64,000 nucleotides of DNA from a phage: assembly GCA_027262695.1 (NCBI GenBank), contig GCA_027262695.1_4722.1; one strand, given 5' to 3'. A model generated the notes under the pieces. It searched no databases. It was not told the origin of the DNA and worked only from the letters and a program-made list of their open reading frames with translations. Of the stretch, positions 1,194-62,977 are shown piece after piece. Numbering within the stretch: position 1 is the stretch's first letter; each line of letters begins with the position of its first letter. The translations under genes and the position numbers were made by a program.

Positions 1194-1220
1194 GGCATAA
1201 ACCCTCCCATACCGGGAGGG
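1194..1220 (-). terminator. GC hairpin (CCCTCCC/GGGAGGG) followed by TTTATGCCG box
   Basis: Minus strand CCCTCCCGGTATGGGAGGG TTTATGCCGATA. Confidence 0.55.
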
Positions 1221-1225
1221 TACAA

Positions 1226-1669
1226 TCATTCATTATCAATAACCCTGAGATTCGGTGCACCAAGTTCTCTTTTGGCTATCGCACTAAGTAACCGTTCTTC
1301 AACGAAACAGGTTTCTTTGCTGCCATCGATTGTACGCATATCACCTCGGAAATTGTTAAGAACCATGAACAGTTCGCAACCTTCGATCGGGATAGCGATA
1401 TCGTAATTAACCTGGGATGCTGTGAAGCGAATACCTACCACGATACCAGGAACGTAGATGACGGGTGCGGTCGGTATCTGGGCGGCTTCATTATCTGGAT
1501 CTGCCTCCATTATAAGCTCAACCCGGTCACCAATATGGAATTGCGAGTACCCGTTCACTTCGCGTAAATAAGCAGATTGCTGCATATTGACAAACTTCTC
1601 TTTGCTTGAGTCGCAAGGTAAATCCAGGACTTCTTCCAACGTTAAGAATTTGCGATCGAACCAACTCAT
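1226..1669 (-). CDS. hypothetical protein
   Basis: 147-aa ORF tightly packed between neighbours, same strand. Confidence 0.5.
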   Translation of the reverse strand: MSWFDRKFLTLEEVLDLPCDSSKEKFVNMQQSAYLREVNGYSQFHIGDRVELIMEADPDNEAAQIPTAPVIYVPGIVVGIRFTASQVNYDIAIPIEGCELFMVLNNFRGDMRTIDGSKETCFVEERLLSAIAKRELGAPNLRVIDNE

Positions 1670-1670
1670 C

Positions 1671-2210
1671 TTAAGCTCCTTTATGCTTTGTTTTGATTGA
1701 TGATGTTAACCAGGATGATCTTACCGTAAAGCCTTCGGATTCATAGAACGCTTGGGCTTCAGCGTTATCGGCACGAACATCCAAACCGATGGCGTGCCCA
1801 CCGCAATGGTACGCGACGTTACGGGCTTCGTTCATCAAGGCATGACCAATTCCGCGTCCGCGATACTCTTGCTTTACGATAATCGACGTCACGTCATGAA
1901 TACCCATATGGCTCTCGGTGTTCACTTCCAGGAGTCCTACCGGTATTGAGGCAATAGCATCGATCATGACAATCAACATCGCGCCAGCTGGGAGACGGTC
2001 TTCCAATTCCAGGGAAGCGTACTCGTCTTTTAAACTAGGGATACGTTCTGGTAGGAAGGTATCTATCCAGGCTTCCGATTCTGCATCATCGAGAATACGA
2101 TACAGTTCACGAATCCGCTGTTTATGTGGATAGAGGTGTGGGTCAGCCGCCGTTGAAGCGATAATGCAGTGGAACGGCCGTTCATTGATGACCAATGATT
2201 TAATACTCAC
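1671..2210 (-). CDS. GNAT-family N-acetyltransferase
   Basis: Acetyl-CoA binding motif QEYRGRGIGHALM and C-terminal AQAFYESEGF. Confidence 0.7.
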   Translation of the reverse strand: MSIKSLVINERPFHCIIASTAADPHLYPHKQRIRELYRILDDAESEAWIDTFLPERIPSLKDEYASLELEDRLPAGAMLIVMIDAIASIPVGLLEVNTESHMGIHDVTSIIVKQEYRGRGIGHALMNEARNVAYHCGGHAIGLDVRADNAEAQAFYESEGFTVRSSWLTSSIKTKHKGA

Positions 2211-2713
2211 GCTAAGTTTTCCTCGTTTTCTAAGAGTCGATTACGATGACGTTTATACATTTGATGTAACGCTGTGATCTGATAAAATTTCTTATAGCGT
2301 CTTTCAATCCGCTTCTGCACCTCTTTCCATGGGAGTTTATCGTATTGACGATAACGATGGATTTCATTTAACATGCGGAGTCGATCAGGGTCTGTGTTCT
2401 GTATCGTCCTGAGTTTGATACGCTGGTAACCGCGTTGTAACCCCGATTCAGAATACGTCACACCGAATTCATCTTGAATTAAGGTGATGATCTCCCGCCA
2501 ACGTCGTTTCTCACCGTCGCGCAAATGCACGACCCGCGATAAAATATCGTTACGATTACGATGACTCAGCTTGATATTAAGCATTGAAGCGATCGCGCTT
2601 ATCCCTCTCTGACTCCGTCCTAACGCTTCACCGATCTCCTTTGATGTCATGACGCCAGCGTTTCGGCGTATGAATGCGATTTCGGTTGTTGTGTATTCTT
2701 TACCTGCTGCCAT
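2207..2713 (-). CDS. HTH DNA-binding protein, paralog 1 of six-gene tandem array (most diverged)
   Basis: HTH-like TTTEIAFIRRNAGVMTSKEIGEALGRS; C-terminal W-x2-I-x5-EF-x-TY region shared with paralogs 2-6. Confidence 0.5.
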   Translation of the reverse strand: MAAGKEYTTTEIAFIRRNAGVMTSKEIGEALGRSQRGISAIASMLNIKLSHRNRNDILSRVVHLRDGEKRRWREIITLIQDEFGVTYSESGLQRGYQRIKLRTIQNTDPDRLRMLNEIHRYRQYDKLPWKEVQKRIERRYKKFYQITALHQMYKRHRNRLLENEENLA

Positions 2714-3177
2714 TTCTTACCACGTGTGTTATAATAGTAACGCTGACAAAGATGTGTGTGGTGATACTCCCGTTTGAACTCGATGCTGATAACGCGAGCA
2801 ACTTCTCTCCAGCTAACTCCTTCACGTCGAAGTACCGCAATACGACCTGAAATTTTGCACCATTCGCCCGGGTCATATCGCCGTAGCTTATGTCGTCGTA
2901 TTACAGAGGCGACACTCGCTTTCGACCGGCCAAGATGATTCGACATTTGTTTAACCGAGTATCTGTGGATATTGTTACGGATATAGGAAAGCTCATCGTC
3001 AGTATATGCCGCGTTGGTTCTCGGTGAAGGAAATAAAATATATAACTTATTCTTAATCGCGCTTTCTGTGCGTTGAAATACAGTAGCCAGATCACTAATC
3101 GGTGGTCTGGGTATTTGGTATGCGTAATTCTCGAGGCGGGAGAGTTCCTCATCTGTCCAGCGACGACACTTGCGCAT
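2647..3177 (-). CDS. double Myb/SANT-like HTH protein, paralog 2
   Basis: RWTDEELSRL and YTDDELSYI repeats; start moved to ATG 3177 with AAGGAG RBS (ORF track uses TTG at 3183). Confidence 0.55.
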   Translation of the reverse strand: MRKCRRWTDEELSRLENYAYQIPRPPISDLATVFQRTESAIKNKLYILFPSPRTNAAYTDDELSYIRNNIHRYSVKQMSNHLGRSKASVASVIRRHKLRRYDPGEWCKISGRIAVLRREGVSWREVARVISIEFKREYHHTHLCQRYYYNTRGKKWQQVKNTQQPKSHSYAETLAS

Positions 3178-3646
3178 GGGCAACTCCTTTATTTTTCATG
3201 TGGTAATACCAGCGCTGATATAACGCATGTTTGTTCGTTACAACACCAAATTTGACGACAACGTCGTACGTAATCTCATCCCAGCTTTTCGTGACCTTAA
3301 GTCGTTCGTTAATGAAATCGAGCACACGCTGTCGTTCTTGTCGGGTTGGTGAGCGACGTATTCCGTTAAGGCGGACGAACTGACGGACCGAATCATAGGA
3401 CCGATTCAAATCAACCGCGATCTCACGTAACGTCTTCTGTTTTATTACCGACTCGATGTACGTACGTTCTTTGTTGGTATAAGGTCGATAGTTTTGACGA
3501 CGTTGTAATCCTAAACGTCTCAAACGTGTGTCGATACTCGCCTTGGTTCGATTCATCTGTTGTGCGATTTCATCGATCGATAACGTCGTGTTAGTGTAAA
3601 GATGCGCAACCGCTTCGAGATCTTTATTGCGCCACGGTCGTACCAT
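3149..3646 (-). CDS. double Myb/SANT-like HTH protein, paralog 3
   Basis: Two HTH repeats (IDEIAQQMNRTKASIDTRLRRL; LREIAVDLNRSYDSVRQF); GAGG RBS. Confidence 0.55.
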   Translation of the reverse strand: MVRPWRNKDLEAVAHLYTNTTLSIDEIAQQMNRTKASIDTRLRRLGLQRRQNYRPYTNKERTYIESVIKQKTLREIAVDLNRSYDSVRQFVRLNGIRRSPTRQERQRVLDFINERLKVTKSWDEITYDVVVKFGVVTNKHALYQRWYYHMKNKGVAHAQVSSLDR

Positions 3647-4124
3647 CCTGGAGTCCTCTCTTCTTCTGATGATGCCACCATCGTTGATAGATAGCTTGTT
3701 TCGTACGCATTATACCAAAATGCGCATTAACCTGTTCGGCAATGCGATACCAATCATTCGTCTCTTTCAACAACGTGTCAACGAAGATCAGAAAGGCTTC
3801 GGTATCGTCATTGGTTAACCGTTTGAAACCGTAGCGGTGCGCGGTTACCCTAAGACTGTTTGGATCTCGGTTGAGGTCACGAGCAAGCTGTTTGTAGCTC
3901 TTACGTTTACAGTTCGCCTTGATATACTCCAATTCACGATGTGTAAAACGGTTGTGTGCTTTACGACGTTCGACGTTTAAATAGCGAAGCCGTGCTTCGA
4001 CTGCACCGAACGTCGTCTCCATGATTTCCGCAATTTCGCGAATCTTTAATCGCGGTTGCCGAAAATATAGTTCTAACAACTGATTATCGGACTTACGATT
4101 CCATCGTCGTATCGTTGGTTTCAC
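3624..4124 (-). CDS. double Myb/SANT-like HTH protein, paralog 4
   Basis: Two HTH repeats; GTG start preceded by AGGAGA; C-terminal W-x-RIAEQVNAHF motif. Confidence 0.5.
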   Translation of the reverse strand: MKPTIRRWNRKSDNQLLELYFRQPRLKIREIAEIMETTFGAVEARLRYLNVERRKAHNRFTHRELEYIKANCKRKSYKQLARDLNRDPNSLRVTAHRYGFKRLTNDDTEAFLIFVDTLLKETNDWYRIAEQVNAHFGIMRTKQAIYQRWWHHQKKRGLQDGTTVAQ

Positions 4125-4137
4125 AACGAGGTTTCTC

Positions 4138-4605
4138 CTATTCTCCGCGTCTTAGTACCTGAGTGTAGTAGAGGGCATAGACACCGCTTAACGTGTAATG
4201 GGTGTTAAATTCGTTATTGATGATATTCTGTATTTTCTCCCAGGTTCTCTTCTCTTTTCTAAGCGTGTGTATTCGGTGATAAATCATCTCTCGACGTTGC
4301 GCTTTACAGGCGACAATACCGTAACGGTAGCAGAGTTTAGCGATTGCTTCTGCGCTACGATTGAACATTACGGCAGCTTCTTTTACGCTATGTGTCTTGA
4401 GATAATCGGCTAACATCACGCGTTCATCAAAACAGCAGTAGCGATGACGTGACGCGAGTTTCCAGCGCTTGCGATTGCGGTTAATTCGACCTTGAACCGA
4501 ACCTTCCGTTCTGCCAAGCCGCTCTGCAATCTCTTGCATCGGTATACCGTTTCGATACAGGGTAATCAGCATCGCATCCTCTTCAGGTGTCCAGTCCTTG
4601 ACCAT
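4138..4605 (-). CDS. double Myb/SANT-like HTH protein, paralog 5
   Basis: WTPEEDAMLITLY...EIAERLGRTEGSVQGRINRNRKRW is a canonical Myb-repeat pattern; GAGG RBS. Confidence 0.6.
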   Translation of the reverse strand: MVKDWTPEEDAMLITLYRNGIPMQEIAERLGRTEGSVQGRINRNRKRWKLASRHRYCCFDERVMLADYLKTHSVKEAAVMFNRSAEAIAKLCYRYGIVACKAQRREMIYHRIHTLRKEKRTWEKIQNIINNEFNTHYTLSGVYALYYTQVLRRGE

Positions 4606-4615
4606 CGTATCTACC

Positions 4616-7414
<2,799 letters not shown>

Positions 7415-7461
7415 TAAAAGGTTTCCTCCATACGAAACCAAAAAGTTGTCAAAACGTACAT

Positions 7462-7504
7462 CGGCATAACGCCTGTGTCCACCCATGTTGGGAGGGACAC
7501 AGGC
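7462..7504 (-). terminator. GC hairpin followed by GTTATGCCG box
   Basis: Minus strand GCCTGTGTCC...GGACACAGGC GTTATGCCGATG. Confidence 0.5.
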
Positions 7505-7512
7505 GAATCACC

Positions 7513-8145
7513 TTACGATTTCACAACACATTCGACTTCGTCGTTCATGTACGCGTCGTATAAAGACAAGACTTCTTTCATTTTGATTTCAGGTAACGCA
7601 ACGGAACGTATCGCTTTCAAGATGTTCCGCGTTTGATGATGTTTTGCTGTGGCCTCACGTGCTTTACAGAACCGACGGATACAGGTATTAACTTTACCGC
7701 CTTCAGCACGTTCGAGAGCAACATGCAGCTTCAAATCAAGCAATACATCGGTAAGTTCCTGAGTAGCCGGATCGTTACGAATGAGTCGTACGGTATGTTC
7801 ATCAGGATTCAGCATCGTGAGGAACTGAAGTTTGATGTGCTCTGGTACCGGTTTCGTGTTCACCATGATGGCATCAAGCTGTTCTTTAACGTCCAACTCG
7901 TTGAACACATAACGTTCGACGTGTACAACATGTGCTTTTCCTGATTCACCGTAAATCGCCATCGCACGATAATCATCAAACAACACGACGTACATCAGAT
8001 CTTGTTCTGGTCCTAGGGTACCATCGATGAGTTTCGGGGCATGTTTCTTGAAGAAACCGTAACGAACAGCTTCATCCGGCTGGAGCGTCCACGCATTAAC
8101 AGGCTGTTTTACGAGTTCCATGTAACACCTCATCAAGATCATCAC
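7513..8145 (-). CDS. hypothetical protein
   Basis: 210-aa ORF, same strand, tight spacing. Confidence 0.5.
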   Translation of the reverse strand: MMILMRCYMELVKQPVNAWTLQPDEAVRYGFFKKHAPKLIDGTLGPEQDLMYVVLFDDYRAMAIYGESGKAHVVHVERYVFNELDVKEQLDAIMVNTKPVPEHIKLQFLTMLNPDEHTVRLIRNDPATQELTDVLLDLKLHVALERAEGGKVNTCIRRFCKAREATAKHHQTRNILKAIRSVALPEIKMKEVLSLYDAYMNDEVECVVKS

Positions 8146-8410
8146 TTACACCAGACGGCACAACCACACCAGTACGAATCACTGCTGCGATTTCCTGCAT
8201 CGCTTTGCCTTTCAACGCAAAGGTTTCGTATACAACAGCACGTCGGGTTGTTAAACCCACAAACTTACAGACGACCATGTTGTCTTCTGAAAGATAAGCG
8301 GTTTCCAATTCACCATGTAACAGTTCTTTTTCTCGAGTATCAATGCCCATTAAGGCAATTTGATAGGCAGATAGTTTCCAATAACGCATATTCATCCTAC
8401 TTGTAAACAA
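8096..8410 (-). CDS. hypothetical protein
   Basis: 104-aa ORF; start uncertain (overlaps downstream gene by 50 nt). Confidence 0.4.
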   Translation of the reverse strand: MFTSRMNMRYWKLSAYQIALMGIDTREKELLHGELETAYLSEDNMVVCKFVGLTTRRAVVYETFALKGKAMQEIAAVIRTGVVVPSGVSDDLDEVLHGTRKTAC

Positions 8411-9223
8411 TCAAATATTCCGAAACCGAGTTCCTCGTTTCTACTTTAGCCGAGATCATTCTCCTTACCGTAATCGGATGAAATTCTGATGCGGTACTAT
8501 AGATTTCTTCAACCAATGGGCACGTACTATTACTGATTACGGTAGGGATACCCTGCCTACGAAGTTTGTCGGCCGTTTCTGCAAGGTATCGGTGGTCATC
8601 CAACGTGAATCCTTCCTTGGTATAACCTGTAAAAGAGGCTGTGGTCGAAATAGGGATATACGGCGGGTCGCAATATACGACATCGCCCGATCTCACGTTT
8701 TCGAGGTGTCGTCTAAACCCACCACGTACAATTTCCACCCCCCCCCCCTCTCGACGGTGGTACGAAGATGGTTAGCAGCCGCCCGTAATTCGTATTTCGG
8801 ACAATAGATCGTCTTGTATCGTCCGTGTGCGACGTTAAATAATCCGTTTTGGTTATAGCGACACAAACCATTGAATCCGTAACGGTTCAGGTATATGAAA
8901 CACACCGCACGTTCCCAAGGATCGTTGCTTTGATTAAAACGGTCGCGCACCTCGTAATAACGTTTAACGTCTTCCGGCGCAATTTGGAATAAACGTTCAA
9001 CACCCTCAATGAATTGTTTCGGACATGTCACCAACGCTCTCCAAACATTAAGGATATCCTCGTTAGCATCCCCAATGGAATAACTAGGATATTTCAGTGA
9101 AAGCGTCACCGCACCAGAGCCGACGAACGGTTCAACCAAACGCTTTCCATCCGGCAACACATTCCTAATTTCAGGGATAAGTTTGGTTTTGTTACCCAAC
9201 CATTTAAGAAACGTTTTATTCAT
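8397..9223 (-). pseudogene. dam: Dam-family DNA N6-adenine methyltransferase, interrupted by frameshift in poly-G tract
   Basis: N-part has FLKWLGNK, LVEPFVGSGAV, FIYLNRYGFNGLCRYN; C-part has catalytic VVYCDPPY; the two frames meet at an 11-G run. Confidence 0.75.
8738..8748 (-). repeat. homopolymeric G11 tract (C11 on plus strand) inside dam
   Basis: 11 consecutive C on plus strand at 8738-8748; 12 G would restore a single dam reading frame. Confidence 0.9.
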
Positions 9224-10613: not shown

Positions 10614-10627
10614 GTCGTATATCCTCG

Positions 10628-11007: not shown

Positions 11008-11083
11008 ATTTCACCCCGTTAGGTTATTGTCTGATCTCATACCTTTACCGAAGCGCATCCCCGCCATTAAGACGGGGTGTTTA

Positions 11084-11458: not shown

Positions 11459-11464
11459 TGCGTT

Positions 11465-12457: not shown

Positions 12458-12475
12458 GCAAATGGATGGGGCGGA

Positions 12476-12784: not shown

Positions 12785-12789
12785 CTCTC

Positions 12790-19069: not shown

Positions 19070-19135
19070 TTTAATCTCCTCTCCTGGCTTCAGAGAATTC
19101 TTAAAATCCGTTAGTTTTGATAGATAGGGTAAGAC

Positions 19136-19164
19136 GGCATAAAAGCCTCCCATTACGGGAGGCT
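19136..19164 (-). terminator. GC hairpin followed by TTTTATGCCG box
   Basis: Minus strand GCCTCCCGTAATGGGAGGC TTTTATGCCGTC. Confidence 0.55.
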
Positions 19165-19176
19165 TCATTAATCAGC

Positions 19177-21410: not shown

Positions 21411-21420
21411 ACAAACATAA

Positions 21421-21453
21421 CCCTCCTCCTTCCCTTACGGGTTGGAGGAGGGG
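21421..21453 (-). terminator. GC hairpin followed by TTATG
   Basis: CCCTCCTCC...GGAGGAGGG; near-identical to hairpin at 60683. Confidence 0.5.
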
Positions 21454-27526: not shown

Positions 27527-27802
27527 TTAATCTTTACCGTTGAACGTAACGCCACGGCCGGTTACCGACGAAGGAACCTTGAGATAATAGAAGTAAATGT
27601 AATTGTCGCGATGGCTAAAATGGTTTTTGCAAGCATAGTACTCTCCAGCTCCAATGAATGATTTAATACGTGTAATTTGAGGGTGTCGTGCAAGCAACGC
27701 ACGTATCACGATTTCCATCTGATGGTCATTCAAACCCGGTCGTGCGTCGACGTGGAAATGAAGGTCCTTGAGGAACCGTTTCCAGGGATCAGGCTTTGAC
27801 AT
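27527..27802 (-). CDS. hypothetical protein
   Basis: Start at ATG 27802 after AAAGGAGGTGACG (ORF track start 27838 is the ATG of the TTCTATGCCG box). Confidence 0.45.
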   Translation of the reverse strand: MSKPDPWKRFLKDLHFHVDARPGLNDHQMEIVIRALLARHPQITRIKSFIGAGEYYACKNHFSHRDNYIYFYYLKVPSSVTGRGVTFNGKD

Positions 27803-27833
27803 CGTCACCTCCTTTAATAAGTAGCAGGAATGC

Positions 27834-27860
27834 GGCATAGAACCCTCCCCGGAGGGAGGG
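27834..27860 (-). terminator. GC hairpin followed by TTCTATGCCG box
   Basis: Minus strand CCCTCCCTCCGGGGAGGG TTCTATGCCGC. Confidence 0.55.
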
Positions 27861-27869
27861 TATGTAATG

Positions 27870-31902: not shown

Positions 31903-31996
31903 TTAAGAAGCTCTGCCCGAAGGCAGAGCTTTATGCCGGATTTACCACGAAATCGTATGACGCGATATGCGTCTTTAATTAAAGGAAAAGCGCGAA

Positions 31997-33451
31997 ATGA
32001 AAATCAAACAAAGCTGGAAAGACGAATTACTTGCATTAGTTAACAGCAAAAACAGTTTACAACTGACATTAGACGACGTAAAGTTTGAATTAACCGAACC
32101 GGTAAGCGAAGTGCCCGGAACGGTCGTTGTTACAATCAAACCGAACGATAATAGTCGCTACTTTAACGAGCAGTCTCTGACCTACGTCCGTCGAGACATT
32201 GCTAAAAACTTCACCGGGATTCCGTTACGGGTTATCGTTAAGCAAGATACCGCTGTAAGGGATATCATCAATACGATTGCTGAACGTTACGGATTGGTAT
32301 TTGACACAACCGTCGACTTCCTCGAATCAGAGCTGAATAAACAAATTACTTTCGCAGACACCGGTATTAAAGACGTTACTGTTCCGGTTGCAAACACGTC
32401 TTATGTTTGGGCTGGTAATCTTCAGTTCAATATTGCGAACGATACGTTAAGCTTGATTACTATCATCAAGAAAACCAATCTTACGAATCTGGTTTATCTG
32501 GATGGTGTTGAAGCTGACACATCGGGGTCGTTACTGTTAGCCACCACAGCACTTGTTAACGATAGCGTAAATAAGCCGATGGTTGAAAACGAAGATATCG
32601 TCGATGAATTCTACAACGTTCTTAATGCTCTAGCCAAATATGGTGACATAACTGGCGATGAATTAAATGCCGCCTTACATGCGTACGATGCAGCAGAAAA
32701 CAGGAATAAAACCACGGTAATAACTCTTGGTGATATCCAGTGTGTTGCAACAGAAAAAGACGATTGGGAAATTGGACGTTTACGCGGTCAGATGGTTCTC
32801 GCGCTCAAATCCGATAAACAACCTGAGCGCGAGAACACGTTAAGGTTGTTTACGAATGGCGGTGACGTCTCACTAACGTTAAACACAATGAAAGATATCA
32901 GTATCGATTGGGGTGATGGGAATAAAGTAACGTTGGATGCTGAAGAAAGATACGCGCACCACACATACGCCGACAATAACCAGTACCAAATCGAAATTGT
33001 GTCTCGTACGGACCCAGATGTGCTGCGACCAAATTATATTTCTGGGAGTGAGATAACCGAAGTAATTCACTGGGCTACTACTTCAACAATAGCTCTGAAT
33101 TTTGTTGGATGCGATAATTTAGCGACTGTTCCAGATGAGATCCCAACTTCGTGGACAACGTTGGACAGCATGTTTGAAAGTTGTACGAATTTGAATGATC
33201 CGTCTATCTCTAACTGGAATACAAGTAACATCACATCAATGAATGGTATGTTCGGCGGATGCACTAAATTTAACCAACCTTTAGCTGCCTGGGATGTCAG
33301 CTCAGTAACTGACATTGGTGGTATGTTTGTCGGATGTGACAGTTTTAACCAAGATTTAAGTGGGTGGCGATTACCGTCAGGAGTAAACCACACCAATTAC
33401 GATGATGGTGCTTTCTCGTGGCAGACGGAACATAAACCGACATTCCAGTAA
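31997..33451 (+). CDS. DUF285/BspA-like repeat protein
   Basis: C-terminal repeats FESCTNLNDPSISNWNTSNITSMNGMF / GGCTKFNQPLAAWDVSSVTDIGGMF / VGCDSFNQDLSGW. Confidence 0.6.
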   Translation: MKIKQSWKDELLALVNSKNSLQLTLDDVKFELTEPVSEVPGTVVVTIKPNDNSRYFNEQSLTYVRRDIAKNFTGIPLRVIVKQDTAVRDIINTIAERYGLVFDTTVDFLESELNKQITFADTGIKDVTVPVANTSYVWAGNLQFNIANDTLSLITIIKKTNLTNLVYLDGVEADTSGSLLLATTALVNDSVNKPMVENEDIVDEFYNVLNALAKYGDITGDELNAALHAYDAAENRNKTTVITLGDIQCVATEKDDWEIGRLRGQMVLALKSDKQPERENTLRLFTNGGDVSLTLNTMKDISIDWGDGNKVTLDAEERYAHHTYADNNQYQIEIVSRTDPDVLRPNYISGSEITEVIHWATTSTIALNFVGCDNLATVPDEIPTSWTTLDSMFESCTNLNDPSISNWNTSNITSMNGMFGGCTKFNQPLAAWDVSSVTDIGGMFVGCDSFNQDLSGWRLPSGVNHTNYDDGAFSWQTEHKPTFQ

Positions 33452-33470
33452 AAAAAAATAGTTAGCATAA

Positions 33471-33503
33471 CTTCCTCCCTACCCATAACGGGCGGGGAGG
33501 AAG
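33471..33503. terminator. bidirectional terminator hairpin between convergent genes
   Basis: CTTCCTCCC...GGGAGGAAG flanked by A9 run (33451-33459) and GTTTATG. Confidence 0.6.
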
Positions 33504-33520
33504 GTTTATGTGGTTATGAC

Positions 33521-33859
33521 TTAGAACCAGAGTTCTTTCATGAAGTAGGCTTCCATATCGTAAATAAGCCACTCATCTGGGATTTCTAAAGGATCGTCTT
33601 CGGTTAAGGTGAGCATGTGCAGGGCGAACGCACGCTTAATATCTTCCAACAGCTTATCATCACCGTAACCTTCGGGTAGTTTACGGTCAACCAGCTGGGT
33701 TTGTTTATAGACATCGCGGAACGCTTCAGGATTATGTTTATCCATCGGGAATTGTTCAGCAGCCTGAACCATCGAAAGCGTCCAGCTTACAACATTGTAA
33801 CGCTCACCGTTAATTTCACTGAACTTATCATCGATTAAACAGATTTGTTGTATATTCAT
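33521..33859 (-). CDS. hypothetical protein
   Basis: 112-aa ORF. Confidence 0.45.
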   Translation of the reverse strand: MNIQQICLIDDKFSEINGERYNVVSWTLSMVQAAEQFPMDKHNPEAFRDVYKQTQLVDRKLPEGYGDDKLLEDIKRAFALHMLTLTEDDPLEIPDEWLIYDMEAYFMKELWF

Positions 33860-39656: not shown

Positions 39657-39760
39657 AATCTCATTTCCTCTTCTCTGTTAGGATAAATGACATGCTGGAT
39701 AACGTTGCCTTTGCATATATTGCTTTATTTCCGTCAGAAATAACGGAAAATAAAAACAAC

Positions 39761-39798
39761 GGCATAAACCCCTCCCACCACCACATGGGAGAGGGAGG
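39761..39798 (-). terminator. GC hairpin followed by GTTTATGCCG box
   Basis: Minus strand CCCTCCC...GGGAGGGG TTTATGCCGTTG. Confidence 0.55.
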
Positions 39799-39805
39799 GT
39801 GTATG

Positions 39806-40542: not shown

Positions 40543-40610
40543 ACCAGGGATCCTCTTTAAGTGTTCACATTCTAGTGTTAAGCAGTTAAAATAAACCGTT
40601 CCTTTAATCA

Positions 40611-40649
40611 GCATAAACATCCTCCTCCCACCACACGGGCAGGAGGAGG
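40611..40649 (-). terminator. GC hairpin followed by GTTTATGCTG
   Basis: CCTCCTCCC...GGGAGGAGG then TGTTTATGC. Confidence 0.5.
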
Positions 40650-40660
40650 CGTAATATGCA

Positions 40661-43644: not shown

Positions 43645-43685
43645 CCCTCCCACGGCGTAAAGCGGCGGGAGGGCATTTATGCCGT
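43645..43685 (+). terminator. GC hairpin followed by TTTATGCCG box, plus orientation
   Basis: CCCTCCC...GGGAGGG CATTTATGCCGTCG after the plus-strand gene. Confidence 0.55.
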
Positions 43686-43705
43686 CGTTCGATGCCTTTA
43701 GTGCA

Positions 43706-44986
43706 TCAGAAGCGATTGACGGGACGACCTGTCCACGCGTTCAGGATAGTGTTACGTTCCATCTCAGCGCGACGACGCAGCCCGTTCGGCGTCTGCGGTG
43801 CTGGTGGCATCCCCCATCCTGCAGGTTGCGCACCCATGCCTGGCCAAGCCCCAGTATTGAACATCGTACCGTTACGTTCCGCTACACGGTTCATCAGCAT
43901 ATCGAACGTACTATTACCTCCTGGTTGGTTAGCACCTCCTTCCCACGGATTAGGTTGAACCGGCGCGGTCTTACCTAACAGGTTATCGATGACATTACCT
44001 GATGCAGTAGGACGTGGTTGCATACCTTCATGTGCGGCGGCTGATGGATTTGGCTTAACCGTAGGTTGCGGTCGACTGTTGAGCGTTACACCCATGTTGT
44101 ATTTCGCTGGAGGAATCTGTCCGCGATGCTGATTAATCGGTTCAAAGTCCTCAACCCAGGTAACGTCGCAATACCCATTCTCTTTACCGTCGTACTTATC
44201 ACCAAACAGTTTGATGAGGTTATTCAACGGCTCCATCAGCTTAGCGAAGCTGTGGATAAGGCAATCGAAATACGGTGCATGCGGATCGCTTGACCCAGCG
44301 TTATACGTTTCACTGACTTCGCTTGCGTGCGGGATAACATACTCAACCAGGTTTCTCAGCATGTTAAGATCTTTCTTGGAGATCTCAACACCACACCAGT
44401 ACGTTTTCTTATCTTTCGTGCTGATGTGTTCTTCTTCCATGAACGGGAAAGTAACAACGGCAACACGGGTCATCTTCTTACCCATGTAGGTTGCACCAGT
44501 ACGACGAAGATAGATTTTAGACAGCGTATACGGTGTATCACGTTTCAGCCAAACGGTAACCAGTTTACCCAGGGTCGTTAACGTCTTATCGCTGGCGTCC
44601 GCAAGGATGTTGAAGAACTCTTTCTGCTTCGGACCGAAACGTTTTGCTTCTTTCGGGTTGATCGCGGTTTCAACCATCCAAATCAGCATGGAGCACAGCG
44701 TAGCGTTAAAACGGACAACCATCGCACGACGCAGGAACTGCAGCACTTCCGATTCGCCGTTCATCACGTCTTCACTTAACGGATGGAACAGCACACGTTC
44801 GGCAAGATGGCTTCCTGTACGCACTTCGGTAACCGGCATCAGCAACGGCATGCTTTCCACGGTAGCGGCAACTGCAACAACCTTACCATCACCATCTGTA
44901 AAGCGGTACTCTAACTCATGAGCATCGTTTTCAAAATAGTTAACGCTTTGTAGCGCTTTACGATAAGCTTCAATAAGCTTCGACAT
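43706..44986 (-). CDS. hypothetical protein with Gly/Pro/Asn-rich C-terminal region
   Basis: 426-aa ORF; low-complexity tail. Confidence 0.5.
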   Translation of the reverse strand: MSKLIEAYRKALQSVNYFENDAHELEYRFTDGDGKVVAVAATVESMPLLMPVTEVRTGSHLAERVLFHPLSEDVMNGESEVLQFLRRAMVVRFNATLCSMLIWMVETAINPKEAKRFGPKQKEFFNILADASDKTLTTLGKLVTVWLKRDTPYTLSKIYLRRTGATYMGKKMTRVAVVTFPFMEEEHISTKDKKTYWCGVEISKKDLNMLRNLVEYVIPHASEVSETYNAGSSDPHAPYFDCLIHSFAKLMEPLNNLIKLFGDKYDGKENGYCDVTWVEDFEPINQHRGQIPPAKYNMGVTLNSRPQPTVKPNPSAAAHEGMQPRPTASGNVIDNLLGKTAPVQPNPWEGGANQPGGNSTFDMLMNRVAERNGTMFNTGAWPGMGAQPAGWGMPPAPQTPNGLRRRAEMERNTILNAWTGRPVNRF

Positions 44987-53573: not shown

Positions 53574-54413
53574 TTAACGTGTTCTCCTGTCACGATGGGT
53601 ATATGACTGTAATCCGATGTCCATATGCGGTAACGTCAATGTTTGCCAGATCTGTTGTGCGTAGCGATCGAGTGTATAGTCGTTGGTAACGCAGTCAACC
53701 GGTTCAATGAGATGCGTCGTGTATTGACTTTTCTCTGAAAACGGATCAACGTTAGCAGTATCTCCTAGTCCGCTTTTCACCGTGAAAACAAGACGAGTAA
53801 CCACCATCGCTTTACGTTGTTGCTCGTTATAACGAAGGCCACGATAAATCGCATAGCTCGCGCCTTTCAGGCTTCGGGTATAACGAAGGTCAGACGTCGT
53901 CCCGCCAATTTGATGCAACATCCAGTCTAATGTATCCCGCCAGTATTTATCATCCGTGTCAGGTACCTCGATACCGTAACGGGTAGGAAGCAGATCCAAA
54001 AGCAGTTTGTAGAGTCCACGACGCAAACCGTGTTCTTCTGTTTCTGATAATGTGTTTCCTCCAACATAACGAGAAATACGTGTTCGTAAATACGCACGAA
54101 TAAACATGCACGTCATTACTGTTTTCGAGTGGCTGGTGATGTCTTCAAAAGTATCAACACTGAAACTCGTTTCGATCAATCGTCCGTTAAAGTACAATGC
54201 AGCTACATACATCGCGCTACTGCTGTCTCGGTCGATGTTCAAACGACCGCAGATATTGGCTGCGTCGTTCATGGTAAATTCGAGTTTGTCGTGTTCAATA
54301 TGGTAGATAATATCTTCTTGGGTTGCCAGGCTCGCAATACGACGATAGCCTGGAGTAGTACGTTTAACGCTCATAATGGTCCTCGATTTCAATTTTAGGA
54401 TTACAGACGGCAT
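53574..54413 (-). CDS. hypothetical protein
   Basis: 279-aa ORF. Confidence 0.5.
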   Translation of the reverse strand: MPSVILKLKSRTIMSVKRTTPGYRRIASLATQEDIIYHIEHDKLEFTMNDAANICGRLNIDRDSSSAMYVAALYFNGRLIETSFSVDTFEDITSHSKTVMTCMFIRAYLRTRISRYVGGNTLSETEEHGLRRGLYKLLLDLLPTRYGIEVPDTDDKYWRDTLDWMLHQIGGTTSDLRYTRSLKGASYAIYRGLRYNEQQRKAMVVTRLVFTVKSGLGDTANVDPFSEKSQYTTHLIEPVDCVTNDYTLDRYAQQIWQTLTLPHMDIGLQSYTHRDRRTR

Positions 54414-54441
54414 AAACCCTCCCCGCGCTATGCAGGGAGGG
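54409..54441 (-). terminator. GC hairpin followed by GTTTATGCCG box
   Basis: Minus strand CCCTCCCTGCATAGCGCGGGGAGGG TTTATGCCGTC. Confidence 0.55.
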
Positions 54442-54464
54442 TAGCCATTGGTTGTCTTCGCCGG

Positions 54465-55103: not shown

Positions 55104-55118
55104 TACAGGCGTCCTCCT

Positions 55119-55356: not shown

Positions 55357-55734
55357 CTGTTTGTCGACTATATCTTCATCTTCATTGCGAAGAGACTCTC
55401 GTTTGGGTTTGTGTTTAACAAAGCCTACTCTACTCAACATCGCGTCTTTCGATAGTCTGTGAGCACACATCTTAACGAATATTCGTGGGTTCCTACAGAC
55501 AGGTGAATATTCTTGTTGAGATGCTTCGCTGCGGATTATTCCCGTCCTACCTCTTTTACCATACCCAGTTCATTACGCTGGCCCTCATCGATGTCACCAT
55601 GATGAGTTGGTGTGTAGTCCGATTACAGAAACTTCCCGTCAATTAGAGAGTTTTAACTATGCTCCTGTTACCAGGAACCAGATCCCGACGGTATCAATAA
55701 ATCAACGTAAGTTATTGATTTAATTGAAAAAACT
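55357..55734 (-). mobile_element. group I intron 2 in beta-prime gene (no ORF)
   Basis: Minus-strand P AATTGACGGGAAG (55643-55631), Q AATCCGCAGCGAAG (55536-55523), R CACAGACTATCG (55460-55449), S AAGATATAGTC (55376-55366). Confidence 0.7.
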
Positions 55735-55747
55735 GAAATCTGCATTA
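55735..55747 (-). CDS. beta-prime micro-exon 2 (13 nt, encodes part of Y-N-A-D-F)
   Basis: Minus-strand ATAATGCAGATTT between the two introns; joined to flanking exons gives ...KGYNADFDGDAM... and a 1494-nt in-frame CDS. Confidence 0.6.
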
Positions 55748-56114
55748 TCTTAATCTTCGATATGGTTCGCTAAGCCATATCCGCACATACGTGCAGCTTA
55801 CGTCTTTCACGTAAGAAGAGACTATATCTTTCACCCTCAGCTTTACCTGTTAGGGGCTCCCATTTCGGCGGTCGTTTGACCGGTGGTTTCCCACGCCGCT
55901 TGGCCCTAACGCCCGTGAGCGATAGTCGTTGAGCACATCTCCGTTCTGGAGACTTCGCTGCGGATTCCTCAATCCTTACTGCTTTTACCGTACCTGAATG
56001 ATTAGTTCAGCCCCACGCTCTGTTCCCAGGCATGGTTGGTGAGCAAGGCTCTAAGTAGGTTCCCGCTATTAGAGAGTTCCTCGTGACAGCATTACTGTGT
56101 CACTGGGCCTAATG
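55748..56114 (-). mobile_element. group I intron 1 in beta-prime gene (no ORF)
   Basis: Minus-strand P AATAGCGGGAAC (56069-56058), Q AATCCGCAGCGAAG (55965-55952), R CAACGACTATCG (55930-55919), S AAGATATAGTC (55829-55819); exon ends GGGT, IGS GCCC. Confidence 0.7.
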
Positions 56115-57357
56115 ACCCTTTCAAGATCATCACGCTTAACCCGATGGTGTTATCCTGCGGGTCGCGTTTAACCTTGGTGATTTCAAGACATTGGTTACTG
56201 CTACGGTCAAGTGATGGATTTCGAACAAAGCCACACACAATCCCATCGAACGGTGTATCAGCAATAAGCTCGTCATGCAGCTCGCTCATCATCGGATGAT
56301 AATTGCGGACATGCTCTGCAACGAACGCACGGGCTGCTCTTGGTGAATAACCACGATGGAATAACTTGGATTGGATATGTTCTTTATTGGTTAGTGTAAA
56401 TGGTGCGTACGGAAAATGCAGATGATAATAACGATGGTTTGCTGTTATCGAACTGATGACCGTACGTGTGGTGAATGGATGTAATGTACCTAATATGTTC
56501 TTACGTGTGATCCCTTTCTTCTTACCAATGAACTCATCGAAAATCGCCGAGTGATACTGCAACAGCTTCAATTGCACTTTCGCCATCCAGTTTTCTTTCT
56601 TTCTGGCGCTTAGTGGCGTGGTTGGATGATAGATGCTATTCAATGTTCCGATGGCGTCTATCGCACCTTCCATTTTGCTGTCAGCGTAACGTCCTGTTGG
56701 CGTGTTCTCGATCACGAACATCATGGCTGCAGGAAAGCTGATGTACTGACTGAAGAATTTATCCCGATGAATACGGATGAATTCGCGTAGCGTATCAACC
56801 TTCTCCATGTTCTTCGGTCCACGTAGTGTGGGTCCTTTATACAAGATCTCCATGATACGATCGAAGTTCTGTATAAAGCTATTTATACCGCGTCGTATTC
56901 CGAATACATCGAATTGCTGTTCCAGATAGTTCTTAAGTTCGATCGGTCGTTTTACGTTCGGACGGTAACTGGCATCAATGAGCCACGTCATCGTTTCAAA
57001 GCTTTTGATATTCAACTCGCTTGCCAGCACGAGATGGACCAACGGGTTAATGAACGCATCGATACCTTCCGGTACGCGCGCCCAGACCGTTGAACGAATC
57101 TCTTGTTCTGCTGGATAAGTGACAACCGTTTTACAGTTCGGGCACACCGTCCCTAATAACTCACCGCGATTATAGAAACCACAACCGCATTGCGGGGTGA
57201 TATCCAAGGTATCGCTCGAGTAAACACGGGTGATGAAACTGTTTAATTTCTTCTTCTCTTCCACGACCTTCGTATCATAATCGTTCAACAATATCGGCGT
57301 AAAAGGAAGTTCTGCGAGCTGTCTATCGAAACTGACGATATCGAGCATGATGGCCAT
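56115..57357 (-). CDS. RNA polymerase beta-prime-like subunit N-terminal part, exon 1
   Basis: Zinc site TPQCGCGFYNRGELLGTVCPNCKTVV ~ beta-prime YECLCGKY...CEKCGVEV; RKNILG...RTVISS ~ RFRQNLLGKRVDYSGRSVI; VRNPSLDRS ~ LNRAPTLHR. Confidence 0.75.
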
Positions 57358-57399
57358 GGGGTATCTCCTGCAAATGAAAAAGAACGTTAGGACGTATAA

Positions 57400-57423
57400 G
57401 GGAGGGAGGTTGCCCTCCCTCCC
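57400..57423 (-). terminator. perfect 10-bp GC hairpin between the 632-aa gene and beta-prime
   Basis: GGGAGGGAGG TTGC CCTCCCTCCC. Confidence 0.55.
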
Positions 57424-59348: not shown

Positions 59349-59416
59349 TTGGGAATCCTCTTTTTCTTAACTTTTAAATGACGTCATTGAATCAGCTTTT
59401 TCTCGCTCATTCACCT

Positions 59417-59586: not shown

Positions 59587-60681
59587 ATGTTTCGTGTTTT
59601 AAATAACCTCCCGCGAACATCATCGGGTGTGCAACCCATCCCTCAGAAAGACTACCTAATACGCGAAGTGCAAAGAAACCTACAGACAATCCAGAACCAC
59701 TACCAAGGGTTTACCTTCGCGGTTCAGAGCGATCACATCCTTGCATTGCTGCTCGCACAGCTCCCTATGAGATACGACATCTCAGTACAAACTTACTACG
59801 ACATGATCGCTGACCTTACACCAGAATTGGGGAATCGCGTTAAACTAACAACAGCGCGATACGCGGGTAAGTTATTTAACGGTGCGTTCTATCCGGGATT
59901 GCATGAAGCGATCATTGCAACCAGTGAAAGCCGTCTTATATCGCGTGACGTTCTCGATAACTGGCGTAACTGGTCTCCGGTCAGAATCGTGACACACCCC
60001 TACGCGAATCTTCGCTATATCCCTCTACATCGAAAACCGGTTGAAGAAGGACGGGGTTTTGCGGTCATCATGATCGATGTACCTTTATTAGCGTTGCAGT
60101 ATCGCATGTGGTCATTAGTCATGGGTCACAACGTCGATGGTAAATGGGTGGTTAAAGAACCTGTTACAAGTTTCATTGCCAGTTTTCCTTTGGTCAATGC
60201 ATTATACACACACAACGACGTGGCTATCCGCAATCGTTGCTTATGGGTACCTCCGGCTAAGAATCCGCTCAAGTCACCGATTTACGTCAACGATCTGGAT
60301 AACGTTTTCAGTCAAGTGGTGCTGACCGTCCAACATCAGCTATTACGAAGAAAACGTAGTTACACCGATATGTTGAAACAGATACCGAGTTTATACGAGG
60401 ATCAATTTCAAGCAACACGCATGGGTTACACCATCGATCTTCGACAAACACGGTGGGCAAGGGATCTCGGATGTTTGTCTTTATGGCAACAGCTTGTTAC
60501 CTTGCAAAACGTTTCAGAAAGCGTCGGCTTCAGTAGTCAAACCGACAACGACTTATATCGTGCAGCCGATCGAAGTCTAAAAGAAGGGAATTGGGAATCG
60601 TCTCCTTTACCCGGTGATCTACGACGCGAGGTTATCGCACAGGTTGCTGATCTTTTAAAAATACTTCCCGCTGGTGCATAA
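59587..60681 (+). CDS. hypothetical protein
   Basis: 364-aa plus-strand ORF ending at bidirectional hairpin. Confidence 0.5.
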   Translation: MFRVLNNLPRTSSGVQPIPQKDYLIREVQRNLQTIQNHYQGFTFAVQSDHILALLLAQLPMRYDISVQTYYDMIADLTPELGNRVKLTTARYAGKLFNGAFYPGLHEAIIATSESRLISRDVLDNWRNWSPVRIVTHPYANLRYIPLHRKPVEEGRGFAVIMIDVPLLALQYRMWSLVMGHNVDGKWVVKEPVTSFIASFPLVNALYTHNDVAIRNRCLWVPPAKNPLKSPIYVNDLDNVFSQVVLTVQHQLLRRKRSYTDMLKQIPSLYEDQFQATRMGYTIDLRQTRWARDLGCLSLWQQLVTLQNVSESVGFSSQTDNDLYRAADRSLKEGNWESSPLPGDLRREVIAQVADLLKILPAGA

Positions 60682-60682
60682 T

Positions 60683-60715
60683 CCCCTCCTCCTTCCCTGA
60701 TGGGTTGGAGGAGGG
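60683..60715. terminator. bidirectional hairpin between convergent genes
   Basis: CCCCTCCTCC...GGAGGAGGG followed by TTATG. Confidence 0.55.
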
Positions 60716-60720
60716 TTATG

Positions 60721-62874
60721 TTACTCTGCGGTTTCTTTTTTCGGTTGGTAGCTTGCAGCGATATCTTGGGCTAACAGTGTGTTGTTCTTATTCGAAATGA
60801 AAATACCGTAACTTTCCATTAATGCGTAATACGAGCGAACGAGTGTAGAAATCAATCGACGAATATCCATACCTTGGATGAAAATATCGGGAAGCCCAGA
60901 GGCTTCGATCACCGGTAATGGTATCGTTAAATTGCTTATCGTTTTCTTATCGTTACGTACAATCCAATCACGGAAACGTTGTTGTAACCCTTTATCCTCC
61001 CAGGAATCAATCCAATCATTAAGAAGCGTTTTGTTCTTCGTTGCCAATGGTACACGAACCCCAACATAAGGCGGTTCAGGGCAATGGCCGTACGATTGCG
61101 CAAACACCTCTTCCCACATGTCGTACGACTGCTTGGTAACCGCAACATGTGGTTTTACTTTAACGCGTGTTAAGAAATCAGGATCGCCGCGTTTCATCGA
61201 TTCCACGATTTCGTTTTCTAACGCGATGATATCATCAAGTACTAATCTGATACTGATCTTCTCGTTACGTAACAGTTTATCCATGATACCGCACATCATG
61301 CGCTCAACACGTTGTACGATCATTTTTGGTGCTGATGCGTCACGCATAACGGGACCTTTCAATTCCAGTTTCGGCGGATTGATTGGAACCCCTTCACGCA
61401 TGGTCATGTAACCGTAATAGTTTTTACCCATTGAAGTCAACGACAGAATCAAGAACATATACTCGTTCTTCATTTCCATCACGTACATATGCTCTTTCGC
61501 GACGCCGATATTACCCGAACACATTGCCATCAGATGAACCGTAATCTGCGTAACCAGGTAGATAAGCGTATTCGCTAAGCGCGTTGAAATCGGATTGATC
61601 TCCATGTTGCCAAACCGCCACTGAACCCACTCCTGACAGGTAAATACCGTTGAGTCGGTATCGGACAACACACCCACTTCACGGATGGCTGACGGAAACG
61701 CATAAACACCCGCGGGTTGGTTCTCGGTGCGCCAGAACGCCATAATCAGGTCAGCGTAACTCTGGATACGTTGTAACATTAATTTTGTCGTGGCAGCGGT
61801 AAGACGATAACCCAGTTCGTTGCCTTTTTCTAACGCAACGTAAATCGCTTCACCATTTAAGAACTCGGTACACTGTGCTGTAATCCAGGCAACCGTGTTA
61901 TTATCCATGGAGGCGATAATGGCTTTCGCCTCTTCCATCGTTTCAACAGGTTCGGTGGCCAATTCACATAACGAATCAAGGAAACCACAAACAAACTCAG
62001 GATTCAGTTCACGCAACGAATACAAGTTGTTACTATACATGTAACAGGCGCGTTCCAACGGCGTTAAACCGTTAATCAACTCCTGAATAACCAGTTCTTT
62101 TTCCGGGTCGAAAATATAGCGATGCAGGCATTTTGATACATTAGCCCAAACCTCTTCCGGTGTAGGGTAATGTAGCTGGTATTTTACCATCACCTGCTCA
62201 ATGGCTTTACGATCGCTGTTACGGACAATGCTTACGATATTTTCAATCGCGATATCACAATCGTAATAATGAAAATTACCCGCCAGGAACCGCTCGTTAT
62301 TCGCATTCGCCGAACCGGAAGCGCATCGGCATGTCGTGGTTAAACTCGGATGTGCGATCGGGTTATAAAACGGATTGAATTTAGATGCCTGTGTTCCCGA
62401 CAAACTGTTGTTGTCTAACTTGGTGTTAGTCTGTCGTTTATCATGCAGTTCCGCTTCGTCTTTACGTCCATGTGCTTGTGCAATAGACATTTGTTTCTTT
62501 TGTTTCTTACGCAACTTACCGTTTTCAACCGCGAAGTCGCTTAACACACTGGAACGTGTTTCACGTGGATAACAGTTCGCCCATACCGGGGTAATGATTA
62601 AATTATTTTCTTTGATATCGTTGATATACTGACTGAACTTAATAACTTCTTTTTCTCGGTTTCCTTCGGTACGTTGTGTTAAAACAAGACAGTCAGGATC
62701 AACCATCCCGTGTGCACCACCTGGCTTGATAGTATCAAGTACGAACCGTAATGCTTCTTGTTGAGAAATACCACGCATGCGCATTAAGAACAGGGTATAA
62801 TCCTGCACCGCTTCTTTGGTCATATCCAACGTACGACCGTATCCGTTTTCATCGTAAAAGAACGGATTTTCCAT
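60721..62874 (-). CDS. RNA polymerase beta-like subunit, N-terminal part
   Basis: SYGHCPEPPYVGVRVPL resembles beta HYGRVCPIETPEGPNIGLI; size and context fit split-beta arrangement. Confidence 0.45.
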   Translation of the reverse strand: MENPFFYDENGYGRTLDMTKEAVQDYTLFLMRMRGISQQEALRFVLDTIKPGGAHGMVDPDCLVLTQRTEGNREKEVIKFSQYINDIKENNLIITPVWANCYPRETRSSVLSDFAVENGKLRKKQKKQMSIAQAHGRKDEAELHDKRQTNTKLDNNSLSGTQASKFNPFYNPIAHPSLTTTCRCASGSANANNERFLAGNFHYYDCDIAIENIVSIVRNSDRKAIEQVMVKYQLHYPTPEEVWANVSKCLHRYIFDPEKELVIQELINGLTPLERACYMYSNNLYSLRELNPEFVCGFLDSLCELATEPVETMEEAKAIIASMDNNTVAWITAQCTEFLNGEAIYVALEKGNELGYRLTAATTKLMLQRIQSYADLIMAFWRTENQPAGVYAFPSAIREVGVLSDTDSTVFTCQEWVQWRFGNMEINPISTRLANTLIYLVTQITVHLMAMCSGNIGVAKEHMYVMEMKNEYMFLILSLTSMGKNYYGYMTMREGVPINPPKLELKGPVMRDASAPKMIVQRVERMMCGIMDKLLRNEKISIRLVLDDIIALENEIVESMKRGDPDFLTRVKVKPHVAVTKQSYDMWEEVFAQSYGHCPEPPYVGVRVPLATKNKTLLNDWIDSWEDKGLQQRFRDWIVRNDKKTISNLTIPLPVIEASGLPDIFIQGMDIRRLISTLVRSYYALMESYGIFISNKNNTLLAQDIAASYQPKKETAE

Positions 62875-62937
62875 AAACCCTCCAAAAGTCGTATAGCCTA
62901 TCTACATCATCTCGTATATCTGTTAAAAAAGAAAGAC

Positions 62938-62977
62938 GGCATAAAAAAGAACCGATCCAGCCGAAGCCAGATCGGTT
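62938..62977 (-). terminator. hairpin followed by TTTTTTATGCCG box
   Basis: Minus strand AACCGATC...GATCGGTT CTTTTTTATGCCGTC. Confidence 0.55.

Follow-up and report, generated by a model that had tools for sequence, protein, structure and literature searches.

Does a GC-rich hairpin that is repeatedly followed by a TATG-containing box end transcripts, start them, or do both? The question is raised by a 64,000-nucleotide (nt) stretch of phage DNA (contig GCA_027262695.1_4722.1 of assembly GCA_027262695.1, hereafter the window). A preliminary description of its sequence had noted hairpins followed closely by TTATGCCG or a near variant and had proposed a combined terminator and TATG-type promoter. 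Sequence comparison makes it very probable that the module is an intrinsic transcription terminator of a Goslar-like chimallivirus. It is most likely a signal of known type in a further lineage, and not a new promoter.

The module and its phage

Escherichia phage vB_EcoM_Goslar was matched by a 12-kb stretch of the window, with 87.1% identity over 94% of its length. By the Goslar annotation the window spans approximately gp112 to gp243 and holds genes for an NAD-ligase, thymidylate synthase, helicases, the nuclear-shell protein (chimallin), DNA polymerase and three RNA-polymerase beta/beta' fragments. On the strength of this match and gene content, the window is assigned to a chimallivirus, a nucleus-forming jumbo phage related to the E. 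coli phage Goslar. Chimalliviruses transcribe their own genomes with phage virion and non-virion multisubunit RNA polymerases, and the Goslar identity, together with the beta/beta' fragment and nuclear-shell genes in the matching region, indicates that this phage encodes both. Rfam and tRNA searches of the window found nothing.

The TTATGCCG sequence occurs 8 times in the window, versus 1.98 expected, and none of 100 dinucleotide shuffles reached 8 copies. The copies lie on the minus strand at 1193, 7462, 19135, 39760, 54408 and 62937 and on the plus strand at 31931 and 43677. All 8 are directly preceded, with a gap of 0-6 nt, by a GC-rich inverted repeat, most of them of the CCCTCCC/GGGAGGG type. 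The module that had been described is thus real, and its motif is commoner than chance, one of the comparisons on which the preliminary description had let its proposal depend. The coordinates given there are right to within 1 nt, and the site listed at 27834 reads tcTATGCCG; the modules at 31931 (+), at 33463-33513 (bidirectional) and at 57392 were absent from that list. The weaker variants reported there also exist, as TATGTTT at 21413-21419, TATGCTG at 40609-40615 and TATGTTA at 60717-60723. They belong to the boxes TTATGTTTG (21413), TTTATGCTG (40609) and TTATGTTAC (60717).

Counting the weaker boxes, 15 strand-specific modules were found at 14 loci (m1 to m14, listed below), and they contain 9 of the window's 12 TATGCCG heptamers. 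Every module folds as a single hairpin, with energies from -15.7 to -27.5 kcal/mol and z-scores from -2.0 to -5.3 against shuffled sequences. CCCTCC or CCTCC arms are present at 11 of the 14 loci; the stem of m2 is longer and includes CCCTCCC, and those of m6 and m14 are GC stems of other sequence. The boxes comprise TTATGCCG (8 modules), TTATGCTG or TTATGCTA (two), TTATGTT (two), and cTATGCCG, TTATGTG and TTATACG (one each), so that TATG is present in 14 of 15. The window consensus is ACCCTCCC-loop-GGGAGGGT-TTATGCCG(T), and position counts of the box across Goslar give T-T-A-T-G-C-Y-G-T. Each module is co-oriented with the gene upstream of it, as had been observed, including the one at 43645-43684 (+), which follows a near-identical homologue of Goslar gp172. 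Bidirectional forms lie between convergent genes.

Comparison with terminators of related phages

The 3' ends of phiKZ transcripts have been mapped by ONT-cappable-seq (Putzeys et al. 2024, microLife, PMC10914365). Most of the predicted phiKZ intrinsic terminators (61) share the motif BCCYCCCCHWWDGGGRRGGBYTTATKYYGT (E = 1.7e-212; PMC10914365), and motif A of phage 201phi2-1 (n = 59) "strongly resembles" it (PMC11512511). The phiKZ lists used here were those of the bioRxiv-version supplement, covering promoters P001-P126 and terminators T034-T076. The listed terminators T034-T076 resemble the window modules, with T057 reading GGCCCTCCCTTCGGGGAGGGCTTTATGTTGT and T039 reading TTGCCTCCCTAGGGGAGGCTTTTATGCTGA, and their 3' ends (position 60 of the -60..+40 string) fall in or just past TTATG.

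All features of the phiKZ-type motif that can be tested on sequence are found in the window modules: the GC-rich stem-loop of the CCYCCCC/GGGRRGG type, the 3' flank TTAT-K-Y-Y-G-T a few nt from the stem, the placement after genes, and a phage with two multisubunit polymerases. The phiKZ and 201phi2-1 motif likewise consists of a CCYCCCC...GGGRRGG hairpin and then TTAT-K-YY-G-T, lies after genes, and takes bidirectional forms between convergent genes. The window differs in host and genus (E. coli, Goslarvirus) and in its tighter box, TTATGCCG.

The whole Goslar genome was assembled from its record for genome-wide hairpin counts. TATG, at most ~12 nt from the stem, followed 31 of 55 strong compact hairpins located 3' of a co-oriented gene, as compared to 6 of 92 control hairpins that were antisense or intragenic (Fisher p = 2.4e-11). 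The box is therefore strand-specific relative to transcription. The rate was similar between convergent genes (12/19) and tandem genes (19/36), which argues that the box is part of the terminator and not of a downstream promoter. A second, independent hairpin finder gave 22/93 versus 31/906 in Goslar (p = 8e-11) and 19/60 versus 20/195 in phiKZ, the positive control (p = 1.6e-4); it showed no TATG enrichment in T4, which relies on the host polymerase. The depositors of Goslar independently annotated putative terminators at four sites orthologous to window hairpins, namely m3, m6, m14 and a U-tract hairpin at window position 29758.

A literature search found no transcriptome for Goslar-like phages and no description of this signal in them, and a paper on RNA binding by ChmC held no motif or terminator information for Goslar. 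The signal is accordingly placed as a further member of the phiKZ-type terminators. When IMG/VR was scanned for GGGAGGG-N0-5-TTATGYYGT, about half of the matches were on contigs of at least 200 kb.

The modules are listed below by window position; letters are given in each module's own orientation.

m1, 1193..1221, minus strand: hairpin 1221-1201, ACCCTCCC-ggtat-GGGAGGGT, then TTATGCCG; -15.7 kcal/mol; flanked by 1226..1669 (-) and 526..1176 (-); box kept in Goslar.
m2, 7462..7505, minus strand: 36-nt hairpin 7505-7470, then TTATGCCG; -27.5 kcal/mol, z -5.2; Goslar has box TTATGCTG and several G-U/G-C stem changes.
m3, 19135..19166, minus strand: hairpin AAGCCTCCC-gtaat-GGGAGGCTT, then TTATGCCGT; -17.9 kcal/mol; terminator annotated at the orthologous Goslar site, 132985-133005.
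m4, 21413..21452, minus strand, weak box: hairpin CCCTCCTCCaaCCC-gtaa-GGGaaGGAGGAGGG, then TTATGTTTGT; -25.2 kcal/mol; symmetric, with ATTATGCTG 3' of the same hairpin on the plus strand.
m5, 27833..27861, minus strand: hairpin ACCCTCCC-tccg-GGGAGGGT, then tcTATGCCG (27833-27839); -17.3 kcal/mol.
m6, 31908..31938, plus strand: hairpin AAGCTCTGCC-cgaa-GGCAGAGCTT, then TATGCCG; -19.0 kcal/mol; between the helicase gene (gp160 homologue) and the gp161 homologue; Goslar terminator annotated, box TTCATGCTG.
m7+, 33474..33513, plus strand: plus-strand reading of a bidirectional hairpin, then TTTATGTGG; -18.8 kcal/mol; between convergent genes 31997..33451 (+) and 33521..33859 (-).
m7-, 33463..33503, minus strand: minus-strand reading of the m7 hairpin, then TTATGCTAA; -24.5 kcal/mol.
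m8, 39760..39799, minus strand: hairpin CCCTCCC...GGGAGGG, then gTTTATGCCGT; -19.5 kcal/mol; Goslar box CTATGTCGT.
m9, 40609..40652, minus strand, weak box: hairpin CCTCCTCCTGCC-cgtgt-GGTGGGAGGAGG, then atgtTTATGCTG; -23.5 kcal/mol; module unchanged in Goslar apart from one loop base.
m10, 43645..43684, plus strand: hairpin CCCTCCC...GGGAGGG, then catTTATGCCGT; minus-strand reading TTATCTTAAG; -20.6 kcal/mol; after the plus-strand gp172 homologue and converging on 43706..44986 (-), with no co-oriented gene following; box identical in Goslar, stem different.
m11, 54408..54442, minus strand: hairpin ACCCTCCCTGC-atagc-GCGGGGAGGGT, then TTATGCCGT; box kept in four genomes.
m12, 57392..57423, minus strand, variant box: hairpin GGGAGGGAGG-gcaa-CCTCCCTCCC, then TTATACG; -23.8 kcal/mol; between the nuclear-shell (chimallin) and RNA-polymerase beta' fragment genes; invariant in four genomes.
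m13, 60684..60723, plus strand, weak box: hairpin CCCTCCTCCttCCC-tgat-GGGttGGAGGAGGG, then TTATGTTAC; -26.9 kcal/mol, z -5.1; after 59587..60681 (+) and converging on the DNA polymerase gene (-); relatives have a different, longer hairpin at this site, again followed by TTATG in the aligned sequences.
m14, 62937..62977, minus strand: hairpin AACCGATCTGGC-ttcg-GCTGGATCGGTT (not of the CCCTCC type), then cttttTTATGCCGT; -18.4 kcal/mol, z -5.3; upstream of the DNA polymerase gene 60721..62874 (-); Goslar terminator annotated; conserved in four genomes.

Orthologous sites were compared in four genomes: the window, Goslar and two relatives from IMG/VR (L127 and L128). The box is held as TATGCYG at orthologous sites in the four genomes while stems and loops vary. 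The variation ranges from G-U/G-C changes (m2, m11) through different inner stems (m10) to inversion of the inner part of the hairpin (m4) and its wholesale replacement (m13). An upstream complement of the box is absent from the unidirectional modules m1, m2, m3, m5, m6, m11 and m14 and present in the bidirectional or symmetric m4, m7, m13 and, partly, m10. In the unidirectional modules, which lack it, the box thus forms a 3' flank rather than extending the stem. Pairing of TTATGCCG with CGGCATAA upstream, of the kind possible in phiKZ, was rejected for these modules on the same ground. Most phiKZ modules are symmetric, (R)CATAA-hairpin-TTATG(Y), so that the box could pair and might pass for an AU-rich base to a longer stem, unlike in the unidirectional modules of the window.

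The module shares a stable GC-rich hairpin at gene ends with the canonical bacterial intrinsic terminator, but instead of a U-tract of 7-9 nt most window modules have only 2-4 T and then the conserved GCYG. An unfiltered scan for local RNA structures (at most -9 kcal/mol) returned approximately 1000 in the window and swamped the signal, and was replaced by a search for compact high-density hairpins and by the independent stem-seeded finder. A 4-mer control anchored on perfect stems was uninformative, since most modules were missed by the perfect-stem criterion.

Several observations weigh against identifying the module as a terminator. Within 8 nt 3' of the stem, 12 of the 15 modules have at most 4 T, and only m4, m13 and m14 pass a U-tract criterion of at least 5 T in those 8 nt; a canonical terminator scan of positions 1-20000 listed none of the three modules located there (m1-m3). 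Together these make it unlikely that a U-tract mechanism alone is at work. The TTATG signal is not family-wide. The Salmonella chimallivirus SPN3US (NC_027402, positions 1-100000) uses A-tract/hairpin/T-tract terminators, with runs of four or more T in 33 of 68 gene-end hairpins, and its 100 kb showed no TATG enrichment (5/68 versus 28/591), which implies that the terminator flank has diverged within Chimalliviridae. The orthologous comparison covers only four closely related genomes, leaving thin support from stem covariation, and the gene sets were based on open reading frames (ORFs), with hairpin thresholds of our own choosing. Finally, termination in this phage is predicted from homology of the signal.

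Promoter, repeat and start-codon readings

A composite element is improbable in our judgement. In such an element the upstream transcript would stop at the hairpin and the non-virion polymerase would begin a new one at the G of TATG, with the conserved CCG as its start. The preliminary description had drawn a likeness to phiKZ late promoters, and the likeness is accurate. In phiKZ the non-virion RNA polymerase recognises T(-3)ATG(+1) as the late promoter (Yakunina 2015; de Martin Garrido 2024, 2026), and the window box has the same four bases in a phage of the same family. At m1, m5 and m11 the gaps between tandem genes are only 31-51 nt, leaving no room for another promoter, and the full TATGCYG is somewhat commoner in tandem (10/36) than in convergent (2/19) contexts in Goslar. 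The short gaps are, however, explained equally well by read-through.

Coupling of promoters to terminators is known in bacteria for sigma70 promoters, and the promoter-coupled terminators of Fletcher et al. (2026 preprint) likewise overlap the two signals in a compact module. Those elements differ in that the host sigma70 polymerase uses stem-loop DNA as the -35 element with a separate -10 downstream, and no equivalent of these -35/-10 elements, or of mapped starts, was seen in the window modules.

Context argues against a promoter. The Goslar rates given above show that TATG is equally common where no co-oriented gene follows, and in the window m7+, m7-, m10 and m13 all read into convergent genes, m10 with the full TTATGCCGT. 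A phiKZ late promoter typically has a co-oriented late or structural gene downstream and an upstream region free of conserved elements or hairpins. Neither applies to the module, which thus lacks two of three late-promoter features. Every window box abuts a strong hairpin, and the genes downstream are not late ones, being those for DNA polymerase, an RNA-polymerase beta' fragment and small non-structural ORFs. The listed phiKZ late promoters (P001-P126) have no adjacent hairpin and stand mostly before structural genes, whereas the window box is always 3' of a hairpin, is also found between convergent genes, and can vary to TATA or CATG. Single substitutions in the phiKZ TATG cut promoter activity drastically, and under this rule the variants TTATACG and TTCATG are expected to be inactive.

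The mapped phiKZ transcription start sites (TSSs) bear directly on this point. Between 50 and 150 kb of that genome, none of 34 hairpin and TATG sites had a TSS among P001-P126 at the G of its own box, and for three of the 34 a late TSS lay 6-21 nt downstream, at a TATG distinct from the box. The sole coincidence within ±2 nt, at 145658, is a second TATG downstream of a TTATA terminator; two other modules are followed, after 6 and 21 nt, by another TATG that carries a late TSS. Among the listed late TSSs, a hairpin within 10 nt was found only at P049 and P075, where it belongs to the terminator upstream of the second TATG. In the closest system with data, therefore, the TATG of the terminator is not used as a start. 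The gene for the beta' fragment behind the TTATACG box, if it encodes a non-virion subunit, would be needed before that polymerase exists, which makes read-through the simpler account; this would come from an early-type promoter upstream of the chimallin gene. Promoter activity is possible at some of the tandem sites with gaps of 31-51 nt. Of the combined element first proposed, the terminator half is well supported by its agreement with the phiKZ and 201phi2-1 motif, and the promoter half is not supported, being weighed down by the boxes in convergent contexts and by the phiKZ TSSs.

It is highly improbable that the modules are repeats acting at the level of DNA, either REP-like (repetitive extragenic palindromic) or sites of recombination and module shuffling. 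Comeau and colleagues reportedly described such promoter-stem-loop motifs (PeSLs) in T4-like phages in 2014. The hairpin family CCTCCTCC-AA/TT-CCC...GGG-AA/TT-GGAGGAGG has at least 10 copies in Goslar, including both record ends, and gene content near some modules differs between the window phage and Goslar. The inversion at m4 (window 21421-21452 versus Goslar 134586-134615; AACCCGTAAGGGAA versus TTCCCTTACGGGTT) and the replacement at m13 (window 60684-60715 versus a longer composite at approximately 174261-174301 in Goslar) also fit such shuffling. Most modules share the box only, however, with unrelated stems (e.g. m2, m6, m14), and matching motifs stand at mapped RNA 3' ends in phiKZ. The strand specificity of the box relative to gene direction points to a transcript-level signal, and any recombination at the repeats could be incidental rather than their function.

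Hardly credible at all is a ribosome-binding site and start codon, in which the GGAGG arm 4-6 nt 5' of the box ATG would serve a Met-Pro... protein or leader. The sequence does resemble a Shine-Dalgarno (SD) sequence, N4-6 and ATG, and ORFs begin at the box ATG as had been reported (53574..54413, 27527..27838 and 43679..43978), as does the annotated Goslar gp183 (record 166088-166924). In L128, however, one nucleotide is deleted from the gp183 homologue downstream of m11, between the box ATG and the ATG that follows in frame, which argues that translation does not begin at the box. This frameshifting indel and the Goslar orthologues at m2 and m5, which are shorter than the box-initiated ORFs, led us to reject it. 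Boxes without the ATG also exist, as TTATA here and as TTATT among the listed phiKZ terminators, the putative SD would be locked within a hairpin (-16 to -27 kcal/mol), and the box at m10 precedes antisense sequence only. The deletion in L128 argues that the true start of gp183 would be the next ATG, ~39 nt downstream. ORF callers and the gp183 record start inside the terminator because its G-rich arm mimics an SD sequence.

Possible mechanism, neighbouring sequences and significance

By its sequence the module consists of a GC-rich RNA hairpin, in which C usually prevails in the 5' arm and G in the 3' arm, and of a short box, TTATG-C-Y-G-(T), where a long U-tract might have been expected. By analogy with phiKZ and 201phi2-1, the phage multisubunit polymerases would stop in or just after TTATG (UUAUG in RNA), and the modules would split the genome into transcription units. 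The order of the genes suggests that termination is probably partial at some sites, and the TTATACG module between the chimallin and RNA-polymerase subunit genes would act as an attenuator.

Pausing at a specific sequence, with the RNA ending in U, G to follow and a GC-rich duplex immediately ahead, may contribute, although this is speculative. The elemental pause consensus of multisubunit polymerases is G(-10) Y(-1) G(+1). A 3' U followed by G, a G-rich arm ~10 nt upstream and a GC-rich duplex ahead would thus favour pausing.

That terminator boxes and late promoters share TATG may be no coincidence, if the non-virion polymerase re-reads TATG during elongation; we regard this idea as doubtful. 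The non-template TATG would then be bound in the promoter-binding pocket under the beta-lobe (GP123-type), and the pause at TATG plus the adjacent hairpin would stand in for the U-tract. Consistent with this, the box is a one-sided, non-pairing 3' flank in this lineage, is conserved 3-4 nt past the 3' ends mapped for the listed phiKZ terminators, and is absent from the U-tract user SPN3US. Somewhat more phiKZ pocket residues are retained in the GP123 homologue of Goslar than in that of SPN3US, a weak difference in alignments of 22-27% identity. Against re-reading, the pocket has been described as incomplete in the transcribing complex. If the idea were true, one four-base word would mark both starts and stops, told apart by the preceding hairpin.

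Other sequences were recorded in the window beside the modules. A second terminator-like class, a minority with true T-tracts and no TTATG, is present at 52937-52974 (-) and 29758-29786 (+), with flanks CCCTTCTTTTTCTTTTT and TTTTTACC. No gene precedes the 29758 hairpin, which stands upstream of the helicase gene in a divergent region and is like the attenuators reported in phiKZ 5' untranslated regions. The sequence TTTCAsGGyTATATTAC occurs at 29663-29672 (-), 53548-57 (-) and 59419-28 (-), with variants at 48272-81 (-) and 39157-66 (-). It is intergenic, lies upstream of minus-strand genes that include those for chimallin and RNA-polymerase beta, and resembles the AT-rich TATATTAC of the early (virion-polymerase) phiKZ promoters in the lists used. 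There are three exact matches to GNTATATTAC, all intergenic. The perfect palindrome AATGACGTCATT has exactly two copies, at 29728-29739 and 59377-59388, one in each large divergent intergenic region (gp159/gp160 and chimallin/gp245 homologues) and near the early-promoter-like motifs; it may be a binding site for a regulator.

The sequence CTATCTATCA is found at 19118-19127 (-) and 19757-19766 (-), 7-11 nt downstream of m3 and of a hairpin at 19778-19801, and a third copy, at 3685, is intragenic. The recurrence may be due to chance, or the sequence may represent another class of promoter element. Window 55104-56116 lacks ~1.4 kb that in Goslar carries the HNH endonuclease gene gp186. What is annotated in Goslar as a group I intron is kept with 92% identity (window 55361-55748), and positions 55749-56116 (~370 nt) have no counterpart in the compared Goslar stretch. 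Window 55104-56116 gave no Rfam match at gathering score.

Read as terminators, the modules would show for the first time where transcription units end in a Goslar-type phage; Goslar itself is a main model for the phage nucleus. They also expose an annotation trap, in which the G-rich arm and the box ATG mimic a ribosome-binding site and start codon, and gene starts can be corrected accordingly. Because their box is one-sided, a property obscured by the symmetric modules of phiKZ, the window modules would be convenient templates for studying U-tract-free termination by phage polymerases and the recognition of TATG. The hairpin and TTATG terminator would be common to distant chimalliviruses of different hosts (phiKZ, 201phi2-1 and the Goslar group) and not to SPN3US, and the stop signal would have diverged within the family along with the polymerases.

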